Source of the DNA: a virus
Length of the DNA: 64,000 nt
Virus genome (UHGV): UHGV-1550212
Strand: one strand, 5' to 3'
The notes under the pieces: model-generated
Database searches by the model: none
The model's input: only the letters and a program-made list of their open reading frames with translations
What the model was told of the DNA's origin: nothing
Position numbers and translations under genes: made by a program
Part shown: piece after piece, positions 3,021 through 60,519 of the stretch
Position numbering within the stretch: the first letter of the stretch is position 1
Layout: each line of letters starts with the position of its first letter

Positions 3021-3051
3021 GTCTGTAAATTGAGATGTTTGTATATGTATA

Positions 3052-3059
3052 TTGTACAA
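3052..3059 (-). promoter_or_regulatory. TTGTACAA palindromic promoter-associated motif about 30 nt upstream of topoisomerase start
   Basis: same palindrome followed by AT-rich tract recurs upstream of many minus-strand genes. Confidence 0.4.
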
Positions 3060-3207
3060 CAAGAATGCAAAACTTGCACTGAAAATATACACATTTTCAC
3101 ATAACAGCAAGCATAATGCCAAGCAGCACTGCAAGACATATCAAACCTATGCCAAGAACAATAAAGTCCAGCATAGAATACGTGTCATTAGACTGTTTCA
3201 TAAGTAG

Positions 3208-12988: not shown

Positions 12989-13030
12989 TGTAACAGTGCA
13001 TTTAAGTGTTTTAACTGTTTTATGTATAAA

Positions 13031-13038
13031 TTGTACAA
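13031..13038 (-). promoter_or_regulatory. TTGTACAA promoter-associated motif upstream of nrdJ
   Basis: about 45 nt upstream of ATG 12988, followed by TTTATACAT. Confidence 0.4.
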
Positions 13039-13058
13039 CAATGGGCAAAATTTTGCAT

Positions 13059-25232: not shown

Positions 25233-25368
25233 ATGATATGATATATATCAAGTGCAGCAATTGAACAGATTGCAAAAACAATGCTCAGACTGTAAAGTCT
25301 GAGCATTGAACGACTAAATTGTACATCTTCCACAATGATATAGAATCATTGTTAATATTGTATTGATA

Positions 25369-25453
25369 TTGTACAACATGCATTGCATATTTGCAATGAT
25401 ACAACATGCAAAATGCACTTGCACTTTGATGCAAAGTACTGCGTACACAACAT
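25369..25453 (-). promoter_or_regulatory. intergenic regulatory cassette: TTGTACAA motif plus 29-nt element duplicated at 26556..26584
   Basis: 25425..25453 tttgatgcaaagtactgcgtacacaacat is identical to 26556..26584; 25369..25408 nearly identical to 18138..18178. Confidence 0.45.
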
Positions 25454-27674: not shown

Positions 27675-27695
27675 TTTTTAATAGCATATTGATAA

Positions 27696-27703
27696 TTGTA
27701 CAA
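27696..27703 (-). promoter_or_regulatory. TTGTACAA promoter-associated motif
   Basis: 22 nt upstream of ATG 27674. Confidence 0.4.
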
Positions 27704-27760
27704 CATACAAATGCGTTTTGCATTTTTGATGTAGCAATTGCTTGCACAGTTTGCAAAAAA

Positions 27761-41167: not shown

Positions 41168-42961
41168 TCAATTTTGTGTTGCAACGTCATCAGTCTTGTT
41201 ATCAACTGGCTCATCGTCGACATGTGTATCAACATCAATGCCAGAAGCTGCAGCAAGTGAAACATCATTAGCGACGCCTTGTTGTTCAAGTTGTTGTTGA
41301 GCTTGCTTTGTTTGAATTGCGACAAGTCTTGCAGCTTCCATTGCAAGCTTAAGATTCTCTTGAAGTTCGATATCAAGCTGTTCAGCATTAGCTTGCATGT
41401 CTTCTTTGCTTAAGCCAAGATACTTGTTGATAAGCCAATTGCTTGAGAAGAATGGGCGTTCAGTATCAGACATGTTAAGTGAACGAACAAGTGAACTGCG
41501 AATGTCTTCGATTGTATGAATACGCTTCTGAAGCAATGTGAGCTCCATTTGCGTCTGGAAATGATTGTATCTATTGAATTTGAGTTTTAGCGCATTCAAA
41601 ACTTCATTGTCGCCAATGTAGTTATTGTTTTTGATGCACATCAAAACATACACAGGCTTCAATATGATTGCAATGCCAAATCTACGCATCAAAGCTGAAA
41701 TAAAGATTGCAAAACGACGCTCATCACGCTGAATTGACTCTTCAGAAACATTCCACATGCCACCGCCATCATCGAATCTGCTTAGAGGCAGCTTTGACAG
41801 ACGTTGTAAGTTATTGCGGAAATATGTGACTGCTGAAGTATCAGATAAGTCAGGCATGCCTGTGCCAATTGTTTGAATGTTGGGTTTGCCTGCATTAGTG
41901 TCAGCCATCCAAAATTCGCTATTGAAAGGCACAGATGCTTCGCCATTAACTTGGAGTTCGCCGGTTTGATTGTCGAATTCAATTTTTTCGTGGTACTTAT
42001 TCATTGCTTTACGCAATGTTTCCTGTGCAGCAGCTTTCAGTTTACCGCCAGTAGGAATTGTGATAAGTGAACGAAAACGAGAAGCTGTCGTAGCATATGC
42101 AATGCGACTTCGCTCCAAAATCCTGAGCAAGTTGAATGCACGAACAAGACGCTCAAAATATGACATAGACCCAACCATGTCATCGTTCCACTGCAAATAT
42201 GCTACTTGCGAATCAAGCAAGTTGATTTTTTCTGAGTTGTTAGACACAAATGCTGGTGCTTTGACATCAAACATTGTATGTGTCTTGAACATATCTTGTT
42301 GAGACTTATCATACTGCCAGAAGAACATTTCACCCTTCTTCATAGGCGTCAATGCAAATGCATTCAACTTTTTGATGCCAACAATATCAGTCGGCTCATC
42401 TGCATTATCAAACACAATCTCATAGCCAAGTCTGCCTCGTACAAGATATTCACGCAACAATGCTCTAACATCTTGTTTGCGAGGTTCAGAGTTCAACCCA
42501 TTGAATGCATACATCAAATAGACTTGCTTGAATGCATCCATAAAGTCATCTTTGATTGTCTGCTTTGCTGTGTCGTCTATCTCAAGTTTATCGATGTCAC
42601 AAAAATCAGGCTCGCAAAAGAAATTACTATCGGAATTGAACACGATGCACTCATCAATCATGCGGTCAAGAATGTCGTCGAGTTCCGGTTCTGCACTTAA
42701 GATGTCATATTTTTTGGCTCGAAGATAACTTGTCAATCCAAAAAGATTCTTTTTAGGTGACTCTTTCTGATTGAACACGTCATCAGTAGACAACACAACA
42801 ACTTCTTGGTCATTGATGTTATGCTCACCTGTATATGCTGCTTTCTCCAAATCTGCATCAGACCCAGACTTGTGCACATTCAATTGCTGCAATGGACTGT
42901 CTTTCGGAATTGAGCGTAATGCATCAGTTCCCAGATATGTTCGTTTGGTCTTTTTAGCCAT
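41168..42961 (-). CDS. portal protein (gp20-like), putative
   Basis: 597 aa, basic N-terminus and acidic C-terminal tail; segment KDDFMDAFKQVY...RALLREYLVRGRLGYEIV fits the portal pattern; located upstream of protease/scaffold. Confidence 0.5.
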   Translation of the reverse strand: MAKKTKRTYLGTDALRSIPKDSPLQQLNVHKSGSDADLEKAAYTGEHNINDQEVVVLSTDDVFNQKESPKKNLFGLTSYLRAKKYDILSAEPELDDILDRMIDECIVFNSDSNFFCEPDFCDIDKLEIDDTAKQTIKDDFMDAFKQVYLMYAFNGLNSEPRKQDVRALLREYLVRGRLGYEIVFDNADEPTDIVGIKKLNAFALTPMKKGEMFFWQYDKSQQDMFKTHTMFDVKAPAFVSNNSEKINLLDSQVAYLQWNDDMVGSMSYFERLVRAFNLLRILERSRIAYATTASRFRSLITIPTGGKLKAAAQETLRKAMNKYHEKIEFDNQTGELQVNGEASVPFNSEFWMADTNAGKPNIQTIGTGMPDLSDTSAVTYFRNNLQRLSKLPLSRFDDGGGMWNVSEESIQRDERRFAIFISALMRRFGIAIILKPVYVLMCIKNNNYIGDNEVLNALKLKFNRYNHFQTQMELTLLQKRIHTIEDIRSSLVRSLNMSDTERPFFSSNWLINKYLGLSKEDMQANAEQLDIELQENLKLAMEAARLVAIQTKQAQQQLEQQGVANDVSLAAASGIDVDTHVDDEPVDNKTDDVATQN

Positions 42962-42981: not shown

Positions 42982-44220
42982 CTATACACGTCTTGTCAAT
43001 TTGACATGACCGCAGTCATCTGCAAGCAGTTTAACATGACCGCAGTCATCTGCAAGCAGTTTAACATGACCGCAGTCATAAACTTTGACGAAGCCTGCAT
43101 CAATCATAGTTTGCTCATCATGATTGCAGTCAAGCACATGTGTATGAGTTTTCATATTGTACCAATGCAAGCCGATGTAAAAGTCAGTCTTGTGATATGC
43201 GTCAGTATATAATCGTGGGTCATCTATAGACAAATCAAGTTCGACGCAGTCAGCAGTCTGCAGTTGTTCTGTGTCAGTTAGCAATGATTTGACAAGCTTG
43301 ACTACAGCATCAAATGACATCCAATCAAATACAGTGATGCATCTATAGCCATGTTGCATAGCTGTGCAACATTTGTCAAAATGCGTAGTTGATGCAATTG
43401 GCTTGTTGACTGTAGAACGACCAGTAGCAAAATCAAATGCAAATGTGCTGTTATGCGTAAATGACGGATTGACATCAATTAGCAAATTGTCATATCGCAA
43501 ATCAAATGCGTAGCAATCTACGTCATGTTCATATTCAAAATCAACACCAGTATGCTCAAGTAGCATATCATGTAACAAGACGTTTGGCTTTGTAATGATT
43601 TTGCCATTTGCAAGTCTGCACTTCTGAGTTAAACAATGCCAAGGCACGCCATATCGTTCAAGTGTAGTGTTGCTAATCTTCTGCAAATTGCCAAAACCGC
43701 TGCCATAGCGTAATTGCTTTGTGACTGTTTGCTGTGCAACATTACCATTAGCATGACCAAACTTGTTGATGTTTGTTTGCTTGCGCTTAGCATTTGCAGT
43801 TGCAATATCAACAGATTCAAGTGACTCAAGAAATTTTGACATGTCGCCAAGCCCATTGCCATATAGTTGACGTTTAGTGTCAACAACTTTTGTCATGTTC
43901 CAGTGCTTGTAGCCATATCGAGCTTCTTTTGTCGCAAATGCTTTGTCATAGTTGCCAAAGCCTGCATGACCATATCGTTCAACTTTTGTTGCAGCAATTT
44001 TGTCTGAGACTTCTTTAAGCTGATGTTTGTATTCAACGCCAAACTTGCGCAAATTTGATATGCGAATGTTGAACACTCGTTTGACTTTTGTATGCGTAGA
44101 GCCTTTGTCAAGCTTTGCATATGGAATTTGTGCAAGTGCAGCGTCTCTTTCATCTTCAAGCTCTCTTATTCGAGCTTCAAGTGCATCACCAGCCAAAACT
44201 TCTATGCGTATAGTCTGCAT
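42982..44220 (-). CDS. RYG-repeat / Vsr-DUF559-like nuclease with C-terminal tandem decapeptide repeat
   Basis: N-terminal ALEARIRELEDERD coiled coil, RYG repeats, LLIDVNPSFTHNS...GYRCITVFDW...FVKVYDCGH; C-terminus DCGHVKLLAD repeated three times. Confidence 0.55.
   Translation of the reverse strand: MQTIRIEVLAGDALEARIRELEDERDAALAQIPYAKLDKGSTHTKVKRVFNIRISNLRKFGVEYKHQLKEVSDKIAATKVERYGHAGFGNYDKAFATKEARYGYKHWNMTKVVDTKRQLYGNGLGDMSKFLESLESVDIATANAKRKQTNINKFGHANGNVAQQTVTKQLRYGSGFGNLQKISNTTLERYGVPWHCLTQKCRLANGKIITKPNVLLHDMLLEHTGVDFEYEHDVDCYAFDLRYDNLLIDVNPSFTHNSTFAFDFATGRSTVNKPIASTTHFDKCCTAMQHGYRCITVFDWMSFDAVVKLVKSLLTDTEQLQTADCVELDLSIDDPRLYTDAYHKTDFYIGLHWYNMKTHTHVLDCNHDEQTMIDAGFVKVYDCGHVKLLADDCGHVKLLADDCGHVKLTRRV
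43001..43080 (-). repeat. 30-bp tandem direct repeat (about 2.7 copies) at the 3' end of the nuclease gene
   Basis: ttaacatgaccgcagtcatctgcaagcagt repeated. Confidence 0.85.
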
Positions 44221-50089: not shown

Positions 50090-50153
50090 AGCAGTGAGCA
50101 TTAAAATTCCTATATAAATTGTACAACGCTTTGTGCACATTTGCAATCATAAA

Positions 50154-51502: not shown

Positions 51503-52993
51503 TTATGCCTTTTTAGATTTGCGCTTTGCGGCAACTACGACTTCTGCTACGATAGCTTCTACAGTAGCTTCAGTTACAACAGACTTGTCTGCAACTTTTA
51601 CAAGAGCTGCATGCAACTTGTAGTTGCCGACTTTGCTGAAAGTGCACTTGAATTCTGTTGTTGCGTTGTATTCTGCAGGTACTGCAAAACCACTGTCAGG
51701 ACCCCATACACCAGTGTCTTCAAATGTCCAAGACTGTCCTTGTGAATCTGTTGCAGCGAATGTCACATGACCATCTTCAGGTGCTTCTACAATTTCATAT
51801 TGCAGCTGAACGCCATCAACACCTGCTTTACCAACGACTTCAGTTGCAAGTGTTGCATTGATTGCAACTTCTGTTGTAGGCTGAATACTTGCAGGGACAT
51901 CTACAGAAATCTTGTATTCTGACACTTCAGGCTGAACTGGCTCAGCAACAACTACTGTAGACTCTGCTTCAACAACTACACTGTCATCAGCAACCTTGGC
52001 AAGAACTGCATGCAACTTGTATGCGCCTGCCTTGCTAAAGATTACAGTGAACTTTGTAGTTGCATTGTATTCTGCTGGAATGTCAAAGCCTACTGCAGGA
52101 CCCCAAGTTCCATTATCGACGAATGTGTATTCATTGCCAGTTGTGTCAGTAGCCTTGAATGTCACATGACCATCTTCAGGTGCTACGTCCACGCCATAAC
52201 GGAACTGAACTTTGTCAACGCCGACGTCGCCAACAGTCTTCGTTTTGAATGTTGCATCAAGCTCAACTTCAGTGTTTTCGATTATTGTTTCAGGTGCAGA
52301 CATTTCGAACTCGTACTCAGACACTGTTTGTGCAGCTTGTTCAAGTTTGATGTTCTTTGTCTTGTTTGAACTCATAGTCTCACGACCAGCATGGCTAATG
52401 TAGCCCTCTTTAGACACTTCCCATACAATTTCTTCGCCTGACAAAACAGTCAACGAATTGCGAACTTCGCCATTCATCTTGATAACTGCATCTGCAGGTT
52501 CTACATTAATTGTCAGTGTAGCTTTGCTAAGCTTAACAAGCTCCACTACTTGAATGACATCATGATTTGTGAGCGTGATTGTGCCCTCCTGAGATTCATA
52601 GCCCTCTTTCGACACTTCCCACTTAATTGGAATGCCTGCGGGCACATTCTCAAGCATCTTTGTAGCCTCACCATTGATTTCTACATGAGCATCTTCAGGC
52701 ACTGGCTGAATTGTGATGCTGAACTTGTCTTTACCAGGTTCAGGGTCTGGTCCGGGTCCTGGGTCATCACCAGTAATTGCAGGGATGATAGTGTTTTCGA
52801 TGACTTTCTGAGCTTCTGCAGTTGTGCCATAGAATTTGAGAGTTTTCTTGGCTTCTTCTACAGACATCTTCTCAAGATTATCTGCAAGATATGTCAGACC
52901 AGTGACTGCAGCAATTTTCTGCCGCATTTCTGGGCTAATGACTACACCAGTAGATTTGACTACTGGAGCAGCTTGTTTTTGTTTCTTTGCCAT
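51503..52993 (-). CDS. surface/decoration-type protein with PEGA-like and Ig-like domain duplications
   Basis: two ~60-aa PEGA-like repeats (...NGE...WEVSKEGY) and two ~100-aa repeats (APEDGHVTF.ATD...WGP..GF..PAEYNATT.F...SK.G.YKLHA); GPGPDPEPG linker; Lys-rich C-terminus; ATG at 52993. Confidence 0.5.
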   Translation of the reverse strand: MAKKQKQAAPVVKSTGVVISPEMRQKIAAVTGLTYLADNLEKMSVEEAKKTLKFYGTTAEAQKVIENTIIPAITGDDPGPGPDPEPGKDKFSITIQPVPEDAHVEINGEATKMLENVPAGIPIKWEVSKEGYESQEGTITLTNHDVIQVVELVKLSKATLTINVEPADAVIKMNGEVRNSLTVLSGEEIVWEVSKEGYISHAGRETMSSNKTKNIKLEQAAQTVSEYEFEMSAPETIIENTEVELDATFKTKTVGDVGVDKVQFRYGVDVAPEDGHVTFKATDTTGNEYTFVDNGTWGPAVGFDIPAEYNATTKFTVIFSKAGAYKLHAVLAKVADDSVVVEAESTVVVAEPVQPEVSEYKISVDVPASIQPTTEVAINATLATEVVGKAGVDGVQLQYEIVEAPEDGHVTFAATDSQGQSWTFEDTGVWGPDSGFAVPAEYNATTEFKCTFSKVGNYKLHAALVKVADKSVVTEATVEAIVAEVVVAAKRKSKKA

Positions 52994-53137
52994 AAGATAT
53001 TGTGAATTTGGTTGTTTATTCTTAACAAAATATGTACATACAGATGCAACAGATGATATGTCAGATACACAAAGCTGCATAAAATGACCAGACTTGCAAA
53101 TAAATTTAAGCAAGTCTGGTCATCAGTTTTGATTGCA

Positions 53138-54430
53138 CTACAACAATGACGGCACTCGTTGAGTTTCAAGTGGGTCGCTGACATTGATGCCTGTGTATGC
53201 AACAAGTCGTTGTATTGGGCCAAGTACGAGTTTTTCGAACATGAGTCGTTTGTTCATTGGCGGCACATCTGGCATATACTTCGGTGTCGGCATTTCGCCT
53301 GGTGCAAAGCCAAATGCATCGCAATATTGACGAGAGCCAATTGGTATATTTGACAAATCTGACTTTGCTCTGTCAACAAAGTAGTAGAACACTCGACCGC
53401 CTTCAATCAATGGGTATCGTGTTTCCAATCCATGTGCTTTGACAAGACAGTTATGCCAACAACATGCTCTATATTGAGGCAGTACACCTTTTGCTAACTG
53501 CCATTCACCATCATAGCTTAGCACATAGTCATGATACTTGTTTGCATTGACATATGCACAAAGTTTCTCCAAGTCTTGCTCGGCTTCAAAGCGTTTCCAT
53601 AATTTCTGTATGAGCTTTGGATATGTCGCAGAAGTTAATTCGCCTCTGAACATTTTCTTGAATGCATAATCAAGCATTTGTCTAACAAGCATTGACGAGC
53701 CTGTTTGAATAAGTTCGATGCCTTTGCCTTGAATGTGCTCAGTAGGGTCTTCGAATACTCGACCATCTACATATATTTGAGCCTTTAAGTACTTTTTCTT
53801 TTGGGCAAATAATGCAGTGTCAGAAATCGTTTCGAGGTCAAATAGCAAAATTGAATTGCCGTGGCGTTTTGCGAGGTCTGCTGCATATGCACCATTGAAT
53901 AACTCTTCCATACGATATTTGAATATCGCAAGAATCAAGTCATACCAATTTTTGCCTATGTAGCCAATTGATTTGACAGTTGGCTCAAAGTGAATGTACA
54001 AAGAGTCTGTATCAATGTACAACACTTTGTCTTCATAAGGCTCTTGCTTTGGCGACACAGACAAATCAAAATTGCCCTTCAATTGTGGGTCATTACGCAG
54101 CTTTTCATGCAATTCATAATCACACCACCACTTATTGTTGAGATAGTCATTTGCTACTCGTTCACCAAAGTGAATGAAGTTGCGGCCTTCAGCAGTAATT
54201 GATTCTGCAACTGCCATATTAAAGAAGTGATAGAAACGATTGCTTGTAGCGCCATATATTGAGTTTCGACAACATTTTGCTGAGACTTGCAGTCCTGCAT
54301 GCTTTAGTGATTCTTGCATTGCAAAATCTCTCAATTCAAATAGACGTTCAGTAGACAACTGGCTTAAATCACCAGTCAAATCTACTCCATCTATTTCAAT
54401 TTTTGACATATCTATCTGAGCTTCTGCCAT
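53138..54430 (-). CDS. family-B DNA polymerase, C-terminal (polymerase motifs B and C) fragment
   Basis: motif B KCCRNSIYGATS (KxxxNSxYG), motif C YIDTDSLYI (YxDTDS). Confidence 0.8.
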   Translation of the reverse strand: MAEAQIDMSKIEIDGVDLTGDLSQLSTERLFELRDFAMQESLKHAGLQVSAKCCRNSIYGATSNRFYHFFNMAVAESITAEGRNFIHFGERVANDYLNNKWWCDYELHEKLRNDPQLKGNFDLSVSPKQEPYEDKVLYIDTDSLYIHFEPTVKSIGYIGKNWYDLILAIFKYRMEELFNGAYAADLAKRHGNSILLFDLETISDTALFAQKKKYLKAQIYVDGRVFEDPTEHIQGKGIELIQTGSSMLVRQMLDYAFKKMFRGELTSATYPKLIQKLWKRFEAEQDLEKLCAYVNANKYHDYVLSYDGEWQLAKGVLPQYRACCWHNCLVKAHGLETRYPLIEGGRVFYYFVDRAKSDLSNIPIGSRQYCDAFGFAPGEMPTPKYMPDVPPMNKRLMFEKLVLGPIQRLVAYTGINVSDPLETQRVPSLL

Positions 54431-54571
54431 AAGTTGTTTATTTTTGATTAAATTGTACTACACATGTTGCAATTTTTGCAATACACATGTTAAACCAAAA
54501 TGCAGCAGCAGATGTTCTGCTGCTGCATCGGCAGGTATCTTCACAATTGTTTGAGTTGATTGCAATGCGAT

Positions 54572-55399
54572 TTAGAATGGCAGGTCGCCATCATCACCTA
54601 CAGCATCAAAATCAGCAGCAATGTCATATACCAACGTCATTGCGATTCGCAAATCACGTTTCTTAGATTTCAGACGCATGATGTCATGACCTGAATTGTT
54701 TGTGATGACTGAGCATTCAAACTCTTCATTGCCGTCGATGAATGACAGCATTGATTTGTGAATTGTGATTGGCGACAAATCTGACGGATATGACGAATCA
54801 ATCACATATTCAAAGTTGTTGTTCTTGGCAATTAGGCCTCGTTCAGTTGTGCGAATCTCAATGCCGGGCAGTTCCTTGTCACCTGTATTCAATGAGCCAT
54901 ACGATGACATGATGCCAAAGTGATTTGACGTCAAATCGAGCTTTCTCAGATTTGTTGTGCTATCAAACAGCATTGACATATCATTGTCAGACAGCTCAAA
55001 GTAGCCAAGTGATGGCATTGAACAAACCTGATTGATTTTGAGCTGATTGTTTGAGATTACAATGAGCTCTGCAATTGTATCTGTACCAATTTGTTTGACA
55101 TAGATTTCAATCATTGCATATGAGCCAAATGCAGCAAGTACTCGATTGTTGAATTGCGTGCCATTGTAAATAAGCGCCTTGACTGTGACATCTTTGAGTG
55201 TAGACTCATAATGTTCGCAAATGTCAAGCACATTAAGTGTCTGCGACTTTACAAAGCTACTATTGCCAGCATCAGTTCTGATTCGCTGGTCATTGAGTGA
55301 AAAGCTAAGCTTGCCATCGCATTTTAATGATGATGCAAACAATGCTCGCAGCATATCAATGTTTGCATTGCGTAACGTAATTTTGTTCAGATTTTCCAT
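54572..55399 (-). CDS. hypothetical protein with SSB-like acidic C-terminal tip
   Basis: C-terminus DFDAVGDDGDLPF resembles the bacterial SSB DDDIPF tip; no clear OB-fold recognised. Confidence 0.35.
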   Translation of the reverse strand: MENLNKITLRNANIDMLRALFASSLKCDGKLSFSLNDQRIRTDAGNSSFVKSQTLNVLDICEHYESTLKDVTVKALIYNGTQFNNRVLAAFGSYAMIEIYVKQIGTDTIAELIVISNNQLKINQVCSMPSLGYFELSDNDMSMLFDSTTNLRKLDLTSNHFGIMSSYGSLNTGDKELPGIEIRTTERGLIAKNNNFEYVIDSSYPSDLSPITIHKSMLSFIDGNEEFECSVITNNSGHDIMRLKSKKRDLRIAMTLVYDIAADFDAVGDDGDLPF

Positions 55400-55467
55400 C
55401 TTGTATCTATGTTGTTGATTTTCAATTTAATATATTGAACAACATTTGTTGACATTTTGCAACATTG

Positions 55468-55842
55468 TCATCGATTGTCGCCTGACCCATGCAATACACC
55501 TCGCAATTTTCGAGACTGCAGTTTCTGAATGTTAAGCTGACAAATGTCAGTTAAGCTGTAGCCCAAATCATGTGCAAGAGTTGCAGCATACCACATGACA
55601 TCGCTGAGCTCTTTTGCGATTTCCTTGCGAATGTCTTCATTATCAAAATCACCATTCTTGTCTCGAATGACTTTTTTGACTTTGTCTGCAACTTCGCCTG
55701 CTTCACCCGTTAAGCCAAGTGTTGGATAGATAATTGCAGCTGATTTAGGATATACTGCGCTATCAAGCGCAGCAGTCTGATATTCATCAATAGTTGAAAT
55801 CCAAGTGTGGTCGATTACGCCGTGTTCATCTCGTTTAAGCAT
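55468..55842 (-). CDS. MazG-like nucleoside triphosphate pyrophosphohydrolase
   Basis: LTGEAGEVADKVKK and ELSDVMWYAATLAHDLG all-alpha NTP-PPase motifs. Confidence 0.6.
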   Translation of the reverse strand: MLKRDEHGVIDHTWISTIDEYQTAALDSAVYPKSAAIIYPTLGLTGEAGEVADKVKKVIRDKNGDFDNEDIRKEIAKELSDVMWYAATLAHDLGYSLTDICQLNIQKLQSRKLRGVLHGSGDNR

Positions 55843-55843
55843 A

Positions 55844-56335
55844 TCATTTACGTTTTTGTTTGACTCTTAATCGTTTTTGCATAAATGCTCTTGTAGCTTC
55901 ACCAAAAGCCATCTCGTCTCGTTCGCCACCACAAAGCTTTGCAAGCTTATTGAATGTGTCTTGGTCAATCATTGTGTACGTTGAGTTGTTGACCACATGC
56001 AATGCAAACTGAATCAGCGGTGCGCCTGGCTGCAAGCAGAATGGCTCTTTACCTGCATTGTACACTGCAAGATGAATCTCGCCATGATAGTCTGAATCTA
56101 CAAACTCACTTGTTTTGATGATAAGATGATTTCGTGAAATGCCCGACTTATTGTAGGCAATCAATGCATGACCGGCAGGCACAAGTGCTTTGATGCCAGA
56201 TGGAATTGCAATGCCCTCACCAGGTTGCAGCATTGTTTGCACAAAATCATTGGGTATGCAAAAGTCCCATGCGCCAGATTCTGCTGTTGACTTAAAAGGA
56301 CTTTCTACATTTCTGCATTTTGCAAAGAATAACAT
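55844..56335 (-). CDS. dUTPase-like protein
   Basis: SGAWDF, YNKSGISRNH, FVDSDYHGEIHLAVYN parallel dUTPase motifs 1-3. Confidence 0.5.
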   Translation of the reverse strand: MLFFAKCRNVESPFKSTAESGAWDFCIPNDFVQTMLQPGEGIAIPSGIKALVPAGHALIAYNKSGISRNHLIIKTSEFVDSDYHGEIHLAVYNAGKEPFCLQPGAPLIQFALHVVNNSTYTMIDQDTFNKLAKLCGGERDEMAFGEATRAFMQKRLRVKQKRK

Positions 56336-56358
56336 ATTAAGTATGTGTTTGTATGTTG

Positions 56359-56709
56359 TTAGTACATTTCTCGTTTAACAAGAGCTTTGCGTTTTGAGCG
56401 TAGCCCTGCCCTATTACGTAATTCTACTGACCAATCACGAATCATTTGCCATGCAATCCCACCACGTTGAATACCACCGTGCTTGAACATTTCATTGCAA
56501 ATACCTTGAATAAACACCGCATCAGACTTTGTCAATGCGTCAACAATTTGACCATGGTTGTCTTCTGTCTTGACATCATTGCAAAGCTTAAGCTCATCTA
56601 CTGAAAGTTCGCCAAGCAGCTCATAGTAGTATATGAGAGCTTTGCGTGCGGCAATTGCTTTTCTTGAATTGCCAGAATAAGACAAAGTCACATGTTTGCT
56701 CATATTCAA
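56359..56709 (-). CDS. hypothetical protein (116 aa)
   Basis: ORF track. Confidence 0.4.
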   Translation of the reverse strand: MNMSKHVTLSYSGNSRKAIAARKALIYYYELLGELSVDELKLCNDVKTEDNHGQIVDALTKSDAVFIQGICNEMFKHGGIQRGGIAWQMIRDWSVELRNRAGLRSKRKALVKREMY

Positions 56710-56723
56710 TTATTGTTATGGTG

Positions 56724-58229
56724 TTACAATTTGATTGCGCCTCTACGAGCAAGCTCTTCTTCAATCAATCGAACATGATTGTTAGCATACCAAAATTGCA
56801 ATTTTTTGTGATAATTGCGAACGTTGCCAAGCTGTTCTTGAGTTTCTTTATACATTGAAGGCTCTCTGTTGTCATACAGACAATTGTTGACTGACACAAA
56901 GTAATTTGGGTCTGCTTTGTAATGCTCAATTTCATCAGGATTTGTTAAACGTCTAATAAAGTTGTCTGGTGAAATATTCGCCGAGCGCATACTTGACGGA
57001 TACAATGAGTTTGCGTCAACACAGACAACCATACGAGCCCAATGGTTAAATGGTTGCTTAACAAAGCCGCCCTCAAATGAATGTACTACATTCTCTGGGC
57101 CACCTTGAGCACATACAACTTTGCCGCCATATTTGTTGTATAAGTATGTCATCATGACGCCCTCAGATTGCTTAACTGGTCCTTGGCAGTGATTCATGTC
57201 AATATTTGTCATATTTGACAATGACATCACATTTGATATCAAGTCAGTTTTTGCAGCAATCATTGCATTGACCATAGTATCGACAGCATTGTATGCAATG
57301 AATGTGCATGGATGATACAAATACAGCTCTTTAAGTGTGCAATCATAGGGCAACTTACCTACGCCGAACATACGATGTGCAATGTAGTCAAGTCGCAATG
57401 ATTCCTTTTGCCACACTGAATAGTCGTATGTGTCCATGAGCTGCATGTAGTCATCAATGTACTTGTGATATGGCATACCATTGCCCCAGACAGTTCTGCC
57501 AACTGGAGATGCCAATGCTAAATCAATATTGTGCATTGCGCATCGATTTTTGACATAGATGTTATCGAAGTCATTGATGTTCCAGCCTGTCAATGCAGGA
57601 ATGTTTTTGAAGAGCTTAGTCACCCAAAAATGCAACAATTCATGCTCATTTGCATGTTGAAAAATTTTGACAGTTGGATGTTCTTTCAAATACGCAGCAA
57701 AGCAATGTTGACCCATATACTCTTGAATGATGCCATTGACAAACTCAAATGCATCATCCAATGTTGGGTTTTGTTTGCCGCAGCTTTTGCGCAAATCATC
57801 ATCATTCAACAAGTCAACAGTAGTCTGAATGACACAATTGCATTGTTCATCGCATGTACTTATTGCATTAATGGGCATTTCAGCTTTGTCAGGCTTTGGA
57901 AAGCCATTGCCAATTTCAGTCTCAATATCGTAAAAGTACAACTTTGGTCTACGATAAGCAAACAATTCAGCTTTGTCAGCTTCAGGCAATTCAAATAAGA
58001 ATTGCAGCAAGTCAAATTGATTGAATCGTTTTGCTGTGACTCGAGTCACTGGCAATTTACGCCAATCTTGAATATCTGCATATTGAGGCTCTACGTGGTC
58101 TGATATTTGCCACACTGGAAATTGATATGGCTGTTCACAGACTGGGTATGTTTTGATGTCAATGCCACCTTGCTCATTAACATATGAGACTTCAATGCCA
58201 TGTGACAAATATGCTACGTCAACAATCAT
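56724..58229 (-). CDS. family-B DNA polymerase, N-terminal (3'-5' exonuclease + motif A) fragment
   Basis: Exo I YFYDIETEIG, Exo II LTGWNINDFDNIY, polymerase motif A VDANSLYPSSM; ends with stop after motif A. Confidence 0.8.
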   Translation of the reverse strand: MIVDVAYLSHGIEVSYVNEQGGIDIKTYPVCEQPYQFPVWQISDHVEPQYADIQDWRKLPVTRVTAKRFNQFDLLQFLFELPEADKAELFAYRRPKLYFYDIETEIGNGFPKPDKAEMPINAISTCDEQCNCVIQTTVDLLNDDDLRKSCGKQNPTLDDAFEFVNGIIQEYMGQHCFAAYLKEHPTVKIFQHANEHELLHFWVTKLFKNIPALTGWNINDFDNIYVKNRCAMHNIDLALASPVGRTVWGNGMPYHKYIDDYMQLMDTYDYSVWQKESLRLDYIAHRMFGVGKLPYDCTLKELYLYHPCTFIAYNAVDTMVNAMIAAKTDLISNVMSLSNMTNIDMNHCQGPVKQSEGVMMTYLYNKYGGKVVCAQGGPENVVHSFEGGFVKQPFNHWARMVVCVDANSLYPSSMRSANISPDNFIRRLTNPDEIEHYKADPNYFVSVNNCLYDNREPSMYKETQEQLGNVRNYHKKLQFWYANNHVRLIEEELARRGAIKL

Positions 58230-58244
58230 ATATCATTATCTTTT

Positions 58245-58655
58245 TTAGAATAGAGATATTGTACAACAATTTGATTCAGGTTGCCATTCTACAATATGCG
58301 CATCAAAGTGTTTGTTAAGCCAATGTGCAAGTATGTGTCTATGACAAAATGCAGATAGTCTGCACCAACATAACAATACAATGTCTCGTTCGCCTGCAAG
58401 AATCTTTATGCGATGCAGCATCAAACTTATCTGTGACAATGCAGCGTCAAGTTTTGCTGCATATTGCTCTGCATATTGTGCATTGTCAAGCAAGCCTGCT
58501 TTATGCAAACGAACAAGTGACATGTAATCAGGCATGACGTCAGTCCATGTAAAATCTGCTATGAAGCCCTTAGGCTTTGTTGCAGACACTTGAACAAGAA
58601 ATGCGTTATCAGGCAGATGCCTGCATGCATAATATGAAGTTAAGATTCTTGTCAT
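58245..58655 (-). CDS. hypothetical protein (136 aa)
   Basis: ORF track. Confidence 0.4.
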   Translation of the reverse strand: MTRILTSYYACRHLPDNAFLVQVSATKPKGFIADFTWTDVMPDYMSLVRLHKAGLLDNAQYAEQYAAKLDAALSQISLMLHRIKILAGERDIVLLCWCRLSAFCHRHILAHWLNKHFDAHIVEWQPESNCCTISLF

Positions 58656-59575
58656 TCTACAATAATTGTTGCAAGTTTGTTAATTGGCTGTATGAACACA
58701 TCAAAACCCTTAACAGTGCCGAACGCGTTTCGTTTGACTGCATATAACATTGCAGTGTTCACATCATGCTTTGCATAACGAGTTTCAATGACTTGACTGA
58801 TGTAGCCTTTTGAGTCTCGAATGTATTCTATGCTTGTAGCAATTTTGTTTGCTTTGATAGAATTTACTGTTATCAATGCATCATTCTGACCATACGCATA
58901 TTGCATTGTTGCTGTAGATGGCTTTGCAGCATTTACACTTAACTGCTGAATGACTTGCATTTTGCGACCATGCGAATCATAGTAATATGTGAATGTGCAT
59001 GGAAACTTGCCAACCAAACTGTTCAAATGATGCAACTGCTCATAATGATAGCTGAACTGCACTACACTGCTATTAGATTCGCAAATGCTGCTTGGTCTAT
59101 AGTAGCCATTGAAGTACCCATACTGAATTGAGTATGTTTCAAAACGACCTCTACGATACAAACTCAACAAACTAAGCATATTCGTCGCTTCATCAATATG
59201 CAAGAACTTGATGTCTGCGCATGCATTGCTCTTGGCATAATCAGCTGCATTCCACTTATCAACGACTTTCCAAGAGTAGCATTTGATGCTTTGATTGCGC
59301 TCATTGACAAAGTGTATACCATTTGACTGCACCTTTACAATGTCATAGCAATTCAAATGCCCATTACTGTCAATGAATTTTTGCAGCCAATTTAAAGCCA
59401 TGATGTTTGTTGCAAATGTCTGTGCAAATGCAATTTGGCCATCTGCAAATGCTGCAGTGTATGTCTTGTTCTTATCGTAGATTGGCAATGTCGCATCTGC
59501 ATATGATGCTGCTACAAATGCATAGCCAATCACATTATTCTCAGAACTCAAATTAGAGTGTCTTAACTGTTCCAT
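58652..59575 (-). CDS. hypothetical protein (307 aa)
   Basis: ORF track. Confidence 0.45.
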   Translation of the reverse strand: MEQLRHSNLSSENNVIGYAFVAASYADATLPIYDKNKTYTAAFADGQIAFAQTFATNIMALNWLQKFIDSNGHLNCYDIVKVQSNGIHFVNERNQSIKCYSWKVVDKWNAADYAKSNACADIKFLHIDEATNMLSLLSLYRRGRFETYSIQYGYFNGYYRPSSICESNSSVVQFSYHYEQLHHLNSLVGKFPCTFTYYYDSHGRKMQVIQQLSVNAAKPSTATMQYAYGQNDALITVNSIKANKIATSIEYIRDSKGYISQVIETRYAKHDVNTAMLYAVKRNAFGTVKGFDVFIQPINKLATIIVE

Positions 59576-60307: not shown

Positions 60308-60519
60308 CTTATTTATGATTTGATGTCTTGTTATATTATTATATGTTGATATTGTACAACGCTAAGTGTCATTTTGCACTATCGCCGCCAATTTTTATTG
60401 ATGGCGTTGCAAACAATGCAAGCAAACACCAGCCACTTTTAGTAACTGCACAAGCAACTGCTATTGCAGCAAAGAAGCTTGCATAAATGATTGCTGCAGC
60501 AAGCCAACTTGTTTTATCG

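Follow-up and report, generated by a model that had tools for sequence, protein, structure and literature searches.

The 64,000-nucleotide (nt) stretch of the virus genome UHGV-1550212 analysed here, hereafter the window, is a single assembly and contains a family-B DNA polymerase (PolB) that is encoded as two genes. The available data indicate that the replicative polymerase of this phage very probably works as a non-covalent enzyme of two chains, cut at the variable loop that forms the tip of the fingers domain. Two-chain assembly is proposed because the halves complement each other in their catalytic motifs, because the split is deeply conserved, and because there is experimental precedent for such enzymes (PMC2988022, PMC3061061). 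An earlier, sequence-only reading of this DNA had described a PolB divided between motifs A and B, a description that complete motif complementarity, colinearity and deep conservation now bear out, and its suggestion that the enzyme assembles from two polypeptides, as in some T4-like phages, is supported by deduction and by that precedent.

Division of the polymerase

Every gene of the polymerase region lies on the minus strand. The N-terminal half of the polymerase (N-half; 56724..58229, minus strand) is an open reading frame (ORF) of 501 amino acids that starts with an ATG one codon past a stop, ends with a TAA stop, and spans the N-terminal domain, the 3'-5' exonuclease, the initial portion of the palm and the first of the two finger helices. 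The C-terminal half (C-half; 53138..54430, minus strand; 430 amino acids) begins at the first ATG in its open frame and comprises the second finger helix, the remainder of the palm, the thumb and a C-terminal tail. The motif content is as the earlier reading had given it, with exonuclease motifs and motif A on an ORF that then stops, and motif C on a second ORF that starts about 50 residues ahead of motif B. Specifically, the N-half carries Exo I (FYDIETE), Exo II (GWNINDFD) and Exo III (YNAVDT), which contain the DxE, Nx2-3FD and Yx3D signatures with their residues invariant in a four-sequence alignment, together with motif A (DANSLYPS). In the C-half, motif B (KCCRNSIYG) starts at residue 52, motif C (YIDTDS) occupies residues 138-143 and KKKY residues 211-214, with a remainder of thumb length after them. 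Motifs A, B and C and KKxY are invariant in the alignments of relatives and are divided between the two ORFs.

Family searches assign both halves to PolB. In Pfam, the N-half matches DNA_pol_B_exo1 (PF03104, 1.4e-12) and the beginning of DNA_pol_B, and the C-half matches DNA_pol_B (3.6e-15) over profile positions 153-353; the N-half also matches RB69/T4 gp43 at 8e-21. In PHROGs, the N-half matches phrog_2062 end to end (2e-61, a profile of 502 positions) and the C-half matches phrog_1918 end to end (5e-46, 382 positions), which means that families of half-polymerases already exist and that nothing is missing between the halves. Together the two halves cover the full-length family phrog_262, the N-half over positions 111-489 and the C-half over 504-842.

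The break itself was located against solved structures and by alignment of the joined halves with the unsplit T4-type gp43 of phage HY01 and the annotated split polymerase of Aeromonas phage Asfd_1. Residue 427 of the N-half corresponds to RB69 gp43 433, N-half residue 476 to T4 485, and C-half residue 21 to RB69 gp43 529. The alignment to T4 gp43, which had been put forward as the way to map the breakpoint, sets the junction at T4 501|502, equivalent to RB69 ~505-510. The junctions of three related cultured phages, MA9V-1, PAU and pT24, fall at T4 498-507, and the 43A/43B junction of Asfd_1 lies at ~510, within about 10 residues of the break in the window. All of these junctions lie in the poorly alignable, variable fingertip loop between the two finger helices, within which the alignment is imprecise. 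The first finger helix, with its conserved Arg/Lys residues (R471, K475/K476), stays in the N-half, and the second finger helix, with motif B, opens the C-half. The two ORFs, each with its own stop and start, are jointly colinear with an unsplit PolB, as an unsplit relative of 929 amino acids (L088:2794-5580, on the 410-kb contig IMGVR_UViG_2799112330_000002) aligns straight through the junction, with nothing missing or extra in the halves.

This division has direct consequences for the active site. In RB69, R482, K486 and K560 contact the phosphates of the incoming deoxynucleoside triphosphate (dNTP) (PMC3061061). Because the conserved Arg/Lys residues and motif A lie on the N-half and motifs B and C on the C-half, the dNTP-binding fingers and the palm are composite. 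In the proposed enzyme, chain 1 (501 amino acids) would contribute the N-terminal and exonuclease domains, motif A and the first finger helix, whose Arg/Lys residues would correspond to the contacts of RB69 with the dNTP gamma-phosphate. The motif B helix, the motif C palm, KKxY, the thumb and the C-terminal tail would come from chain 2 (430 amino acids). Both chains would take part in the fingers hairpin and in the catalytic palm, resulting in a large, obligatory interface.

Conservation of the split

The same stop and restart occur in an independently assembled IMG/VR contig of 175.5 kb (L002/L006) whose DNA is ~94% identical to the window. A more distant Logan contig (L003), with an N-half 62% identical to that of the window, stops at the same residue (RRGVLKI versus RRGAIKL) and has a similar restart, so that a terminal pattern RRGxxK[LI] followed by a stop is common to both. 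The same architecture is found in the cultured jumbo phages MA9V-1, PAU and pT24, whose halves show 25-38% protein identity to those of the window, and in the metagenomic contigs L171, L172 and L173. A search of the phage collection for near-identical DNA gave no match, and the closest cultured phages show 33-36% protein identity. When 5.8 billion proteins were searched with an N-half profile, the best 19 clusters comprised 17 with lengths of 359-520 amino acids and two longer ones of 666 and 750, the latter with an intein domain; full-length enzymes (813-875 amino acids) appear in that search only at far lower scores.

These observations bear on the reading that the polymerase is really one gene, which a sequencing or assembly artefact, or a fresh break into a pseudogene, has made to look like two. 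An assembly error that rejoins the ORFs had been named in advance as the finding that would speak against a split, and it receives no support, given the conservation in independent assemblies and in isolates, which share the stop, the restart and the gene order. Throughout the clade, at 25-60% identity, both halves keep all catalytic motifs; 68 of the 93 codons that differ between the window and L002 are synonymous; and half-sized PHROG families exist already. No point in favour of an artefact was found apart from the weak one that the window is a single assembly, and the probability of this reading is close to nil.

The arrangement around the break was compared by scoring profiles of the N-half, of the C-half and of the sliding clamp encoded between them (described below) on 86 loci. 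In every split relative the clamp gene lies directly upstream of the C-half, and ~70 more distant, unsplit enzymes of ~850 amino acids are without that clamp. The unsplit enzyme of L088 likewise has no clamp of this family within its 3-kb flanks. The size of the gap varies from ~1.2 kb in pT24 through 2.2 kb in MA9V-1, 2.3 kb in the window, 2.4 kb in PAU and 3.5 kb in L002 to 4.0 kb in L003. Eight further contigs (L007-L014) have the clamp followed by the C-half and no N-half within 10 kb, and they were not recovered when viral contigs were scanned with the N-half profile. When one of them, L008, was walked upstream, the 3' end of an N-half (motif A DFASLYP, then a stop) came to light on the same strand as the C-half and ~19.4 kb ahead of it (L168:1-361 and L168:19779-20870, IMGVR_UViG_3300042540_001822). 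Between the halves in L008 lie genes for topoisomerase II subunits, UvdE, DnaJ and others, with the clamp still directly before the C-half. As a separate observation, the contig L174 has an N-half beside portal and terminase genes and no C-half within 10 kb.

Such distances, of more than 10 kb in some relatives, could suggest that the halves are not one enzyme at all, the N-half being a stand-alone 3'-5' exonuclease or nuclease, the C-half having another catalytic role or none, and replication being carried out by a different polymerase whose gene lies elsewhere. The halves also look separately transcribed (see below), and a second, minimal Pol III-like enzyme, itself split, has been reported from jumbo phages of this general group (PMC7824862). 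Against this stands the active site itself, as motifs A and C provide its two catalytic aspartates and finger residues are shared between the chains, so that strict conservation in both halves would otherwise be hard to explain. The halves co-occur in every contig of sufficient length, and active two-chain PolB enzymes are known from experiment (PMC2988022, PMC3061061). Separate functions are accordingly considered unlikely, and a single enzyme of two chains is the preferred reading.

The sliding clamp and its neighbours

The gap between the halves (54431-56723, 2293 nt) holds four ORFs. The sequence-only reading had listed them as a protein with an acidic tip like that of the single-stranded-DNA-binding protein (SSB), a MazG-like enzyme, a dUTPase-like protein and a small ORF; the last three stand, whereas the first is better described as a sliding clamp. 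This protein (54572..55399, minus strand) has 275 amino acids, the size of gp45/PCNA, and an acidic C-terminal tail ending in DDGDLPF. Pfam, PHROGs and NCBIfam contain no family that it matches. In MA9V-1, the gene immediately before the C-half encodes a homologue (BLASTP 3e-12), and the protein also matches PAU gp109 with 98% probability in hhalign (E 6e-14), and PAU gp109 has been assigned as a gp45-like clamp (PMC4889955). For pT24 gp167 the relation is an alignment only, at 16% identity, and L003 has a homologue directly upstream of its C-half.

The identity of the protein emerged from an exhaustive HMMER search and from comparison of its predicted fold, because searches by sequence only had failed to name it. 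A word-indexed protein search returned 12 relatives only, whereas the exhaustive search gave 125 cluster representatives (50% clustering) of 245-300 amino acids. No clamp family of Pfam was matched by any of the 95 members scanned, and the few Pfam matches were scattered and weak. Against the Protein Data Bank (PDB), the four best matches of a 95-sequence profile are all PCNA, though at E ~0.1; a 6-sequence profile had returned leucine-rich-repeat matches only, which were discarded as spurious. An AlphaFold2 model, built from a shallow alignment and with a mean confidence (pLDDT) of 66.8, shows four helix-plus-sheet repeats, and the predicted fold matches clamps only, in agreement with a DNA-clamp fold, which consists of two domains of repeated beta-alpha-beta-beta-beta units in about 230-290 amino acids. 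As judged from its homologues and from this model, the 275-amino-acid protein is a sliding clamp. An SSB identity was rejected, since no SSB or OB family is matched in Pfam, PHROGs or NCBIfam and the predicted fold matches only clamps.

The likeness to an SSB tip is nonetheless real for the last residues, even though the fold is that of a clamp and such a tip is by itself insufficient to identify an SSB. The C-terminus, DFDAVGDDGDLPF (54572-54615, minus strand), resembles the C-terminal tip of bacterial SSB, which in E. coli ends in DDDIPF, acidic and with an aromatic last residue. Acidic, aromatic-rich tails occur in 38 of the 95 family members; the clamps of 270-300 amino acids have acidic tails rich in Phe/Trp, the shorter members have none, and the DDxDLPF form is found only in the close kin of the window, which end in DDDDLPF. 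To our knowledge, no described clamp carries an SSB-like tip. Possible binding partners of the tail are the polymerase, the clamp loader and host proteins that interact with SSB. Clamp loaders have been reported in PAU and MA9V-1 (PMC4889955 for PAU).

The remaining genes of the gap are related to nucleotide metabolism or lack a known family. The MazG-like NTP pyrophosphohydrolase (55468..55842, minus strand, 124 amino acids) matches PF03819 (8e-9; 36.1 bits, above the curated cutoff of 22) and phrog_229 (1e-35). The dUTPase-like protein (55844..56335, minus strand, 163 amino acids) matches PF00692 (7e-11; 42.4 bits, likewise above a curated cutoff of 22) and TIGR00576 (2e-13, under its cutoff) and shares 62% identity with the dUTPase encoded in the L003 gap. 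A small ORF (56359..56703, minus strand) encodes 114 amino acids from the ATG at 56703, or 116 from the listed TTG at 56709, of which the ATG is the more likely start; it has no family match in Pfam, PHROGs or NCBIfam, and a 93-amino-acid ORF occupies its position in L171. The dUTPase recurs in the gaps of the window, L003, L171 and PAU, whereas the MazG gene and the 114-amino-acid ORF are confined to the close kin of the window. The cargo of the gap is replication-related, with the clamp always directly upstream of the C-half and, here, the dUTPase, MazG and small ORF in addition.

Just downstream of the C-half, an ORF of 525/536 amino acids (51503-53113, minus strand) contains internal repeats of ~100 amino acids, such as GVDKVQFRYGVDVAPEDGHVTFKATD and GVDGVQLQYEIVEAPEDGHVTFAATD. 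No PHROG is matched by this ORF, and the gene at its position in L171 matches the head-fibre family PF25641.

Predicted transcription units

The region also contains a recurrent motif on the coding strand, TGCAAR-N15-16-GTWHWAT, which is mostly intergenic and typically reads TGCAAA...TGTTGTACAAT, also in the form TGCAAA-N15-16-(T)GTTGTACAAT. The window has 13 copies, all on the minus strand, versus 0.52 expected, a statistic that is indicative only because the pattern was set after inspection of the intergenic sequences. The sites include 3051-3078, 13030-13057, 25368-25395, 27695-27722, 50118-50145 and 60351-60378, the last being the next copy upstream of the N-half. One promoter-like motif of this kind, TGCAAAATGTCAACAAATGTTGTTCAAT (55434..55461, minus strand), lies upstream of the clamp gene, and another, TGCAAAAATTGCAACATGTGTAGTACAAT (54452..54480, minus strand), ends 22 nt before the ATG of the C-half, with its GTACAAT core kept in L002. 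The earlier reading had reported a promoter-like motif ahead of the C-half; such an element is present and recurrent, but the sequence quoted for it, TTGTACTA, was taken from the wrong strand. A single copy of TTGTACTA is present, on the plus (non-coding) strand of the window, with 1.26 copies expected by chance, and the sequence was rejected as a recurrent motif in itself. It is the reverse complement of TAGTACAA, the core of the recurrent motif, which contains the palindrome GTAC. The TGCAAR motif resembles a -35/-10 pair of the sigma-70 type rather than the Bacteroidota consensus, which may be informative about the host or point to a sigma factor specific to the phage. A generic sigma-70 scan found 23 sites versus 17.8 in shuffled sequences, that is, no enrichment.

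Terminator-like hairpins lie on both sides of the C-half. The first, between the clamp gene and the C-half (54499..54529, minus strand), has a 14-bp stem followed by the T-rich TTTTGGTTT. The spacer that contains it folds at -40 kcal/mol (z -3.5), and in L002 its stem is identical and its loop differs. The second, directly 3' of the C-half stop (53084..53123, minus strand), consists of ATGACCAGACTTGC, 12 nt and GCAAGTCTGGTCAT, followed by TTT; it was read from the intergenic sequence, as the scan leaves loops longer than 8 nt unscored. With a promoter-like motif before it and a hairpin on either side, the C-half looks like a short predicted transcription unit of its own, and the N-half appears to belong to a longer one.

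The content of the gap also speaks to the reading that the halves are rejoined, by an intron, by an intein or split-intein trans-splicing or by ribosomal bypassing, so that the active enzyme is a single chain. Introns and inteins do occur in the polB genes of relatives, as exemplified by an intein in protein P0147 and an insert of ~1.25 kb in the locus L146. In the window, the gap consists of four ordinary protein genes together with promoter- and terminator-like elements. An Rfam scan of 52500-59000 at E up to 1 found no intron family and a single chance hit to a snoRNA, and in Pfam neither half has a Hint/intein domain. The halves have no spare length that could hold one, there are no extra intein pieces of 100 or 35 amino acids and no HN[CST] junction, and the end of the N-half and the start of the C-half both lie inside the fingertip alignment. 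Among relatives, moreover, the gap ranges from 1.2 to 19.4 kb. A splicing event that removes the intervening region had been named as something that would overturn a two-gene polymerase, and the scans show no intron or intein signal. Rejoining by read-through or frameshifting was considered and rejected as well. A single-chain product is therefore highly improbable, and two chains that associate non-covalently remain the favoured form of the enzyme.

Origin of the split and mobile elements

Family-B replicative polymerases cut in the fingertip loop between the finger helices are already known from T4-like phages, where the two genes, 43A and 43B, likewise share a strand and follow each other in N-to-C order. 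Bicistronic gp43 enzymes of this kind have been described for the Aeromonas phages 25, 31, 44RR and 65 and the Acinetobacter phage 133 (Petrov et al. 2006, 2010; reviewed in PMC2988022 and PMC3061061), and 43A and 43B of phage 25 are reported to co-purify and to be active (PMC2988022, citing Petrov 2010). The gap reported for these phages spans 2 bp to ~3 kb, compared with up to ~19.4 kb among the relatives of the window, and it sometimes holds a homing-endonuclease gene, as in L002. In T4-like phages the clamp gene precedes the entire polymerase locus, whereas the gap described here always has a clamp gene directly before the C-half, and in the window it also has genes of nucleotide metabolism.

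The lineage of the window is also distant from the T4-like one. In a rough neighbour-joining (NJ) tree, which has no support values, the unsplit L088 lies at the base of the split clade, and the T4-like enzymes, including the split one of Asfd_1, form a separate clade. The polymerase of Asfd_1 shares 53% identity with the unsplit HY01 gp43, whereas the window is 22% identical to both. Together, the tree and the pairwise identities speak against common descent with the split polymerases of T4-like phages and argue that the same permissive loop was split independently. Most simply, the split in the lineage of PAU, pT24 and MA9V-1 would be a single old event, independent of the T4-like one.

Within this lineage, the layout of the window (N-half, variable genes, a clamp of 270-300 amino acids, C-half) is that of phage PAU (Sphingomonas/Sphingobacterium; gp105...gp110, with a dUTPase in the gap), of Tenacibaculum phage pT24 (gp165...gp168) and of Chryseobacterium phage MA9V-1 (ORF135...ORF138). 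Unlike the window, these three phages carry other cargo in the gap, with no MazG or 114-amino-acid ORF. Their split is visible in database annotation and was not discussed in the literature located; the word 'split' is absent from the MA9V-1 paper.

Archaeal enzymes provide further parallels, with no clamp gene in the gap. In Methanothermobacter thermautotrophicus, two PolB chains reassemble into an active enzyme (Kelman et al. 1999); the genes are 85 kb apart, far separated as in relatives of the L008 type, and the split lies in the palm, ~83 residues further C-terminal. The Pfu polymerase has been split in the fingers, as in the window, but as an artificial construct. It is fully active when cut at the fingertip, and its C-fragment folds only with the N-fragment (PMC3061061). 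In engineering work, split-fingertip enzymes have shown altered tolerance of nucleotide analogues (PMC3061061).

The break has since been a site of insertion. In L002, a clean insert of 1231 bp (L002:4483-5713) lies in the spacer after the N-half stop codon, at a point corresponding to 56719..56721 of the window, from which it is missing. It encodes a homing-endonuclease-like ORF of 399 amino acids with DUF7487 repeats (PF24308, 9e-9) and a match to the homing-endonuclease family phrog_3339 (2e-7). Over most of the region the DNA of the window and L002 is 97-100% identical, but a segment immediately within the 3' end of the N-half gene (56808-57004) shows 66-73% identity, and 51 of the 93 differing codons fall within codons 376-475. 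This pattern looks like that expected around a homing-endonuclease target or a co-conversion tract. As the split is far older than the insert in L002, the endonuclease entered a polymerase gene that had been divided beforehand, an order of events also suggested for the seg-like gene of phage 25 (PMC2988022). The available data are compatible with a model in which the split arose once in this lineage, independently of the T4-like one, and the gap later gained variable insertions, among them a homing endonuclease.

Related elements occur elsewhere. In the window, a 412-amino-acid ORF (42982-44220, minus strand) is 39% identical (E 1.5e-80) to the endonuclease of L002, has weak PHROG matches to homing endonucleases and adjoins the portal gene (41168-42961, minus strand). 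This family of endonucleases thus appears active among these phages. In L146:2803-7266 (IMGVR_UViG_3300028805_004760), the fingertip is intact and the interruption of ~1.25 kb lies right after motif C (YSDTDS); it contains an endonuclease-like ORF with KYG repeats, similar in general type to the gene in L002. Protein P0147, the N-half of a relative, has 750 amino acids and carries an intein splicing domain. As such, polB appears to be a repeated target of mobile elements in this group.

Implications

Several points weigh against a polymerase of two chains as drawn here, or against parts of it. The assembly and activity of these particular chains are deduced rather than seen in an experiment or a structure, and the analysis covers the window only, so that a second polymerase may lie elsewhere in the genome. 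The predicted transcription units are derived from motifs alone, with a pattern chosen post hoc, and the model of the clamp is of moderate confidence (pLDDT 66.8).

A more speculative proposal sees in the split something beyond a scar that is tolerated. It concerns the clamp and the C-half, the latter with its thumb and a putative clamp-binding tail, which would form an invariant unit with its own transcription even where the N-half is 19 kb distant. Independent expression of the chains could control their assembly, or the C-half and the clamp could pre-assemble on DNA; both ideas are improbable at present. In the case of pre-assembly, the chain with the exonuclease and motif A would dock afterwards, and the clamp tail DDGDLPF might tether the clamp to the polymerase or to SSB-binding host proteins. 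If true, this would amount to a logic of replisome assembly that is undescribed for single-chain PolB enzymes.

A split PolB of two chains is already known in kind, and the novelty of the present one is modest in that respect; the invariant pairing of clamp and C-half, a gap that has grown to ~19 kb, and the polymorphism of the endonuclease were not discussed in the literature located. For annotation pipelines, the findings mean that the two halves should be joined functionally and that the 275-amino-acid family should be named a sliding clamp instead of a hypothetical or SSB-like protein. Beyond annotation, the jumbo phages related to PAU, pT24 and MA9V-1 and their metagenomic kin constitute a second, independent phage lineage with a two-chain PolB cut at the fingertip, which strengthens the view of the fingertip loop as a structurally permissive hot spot where mobile DNA can land. 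They also offer a natural series for the evolution of a split essential gene, from an unsplit polymerase through gaps of 1.2-4 kb to one of 19.4 kb, including the presence and absence of a homing endonuclease between near-identical genomes.

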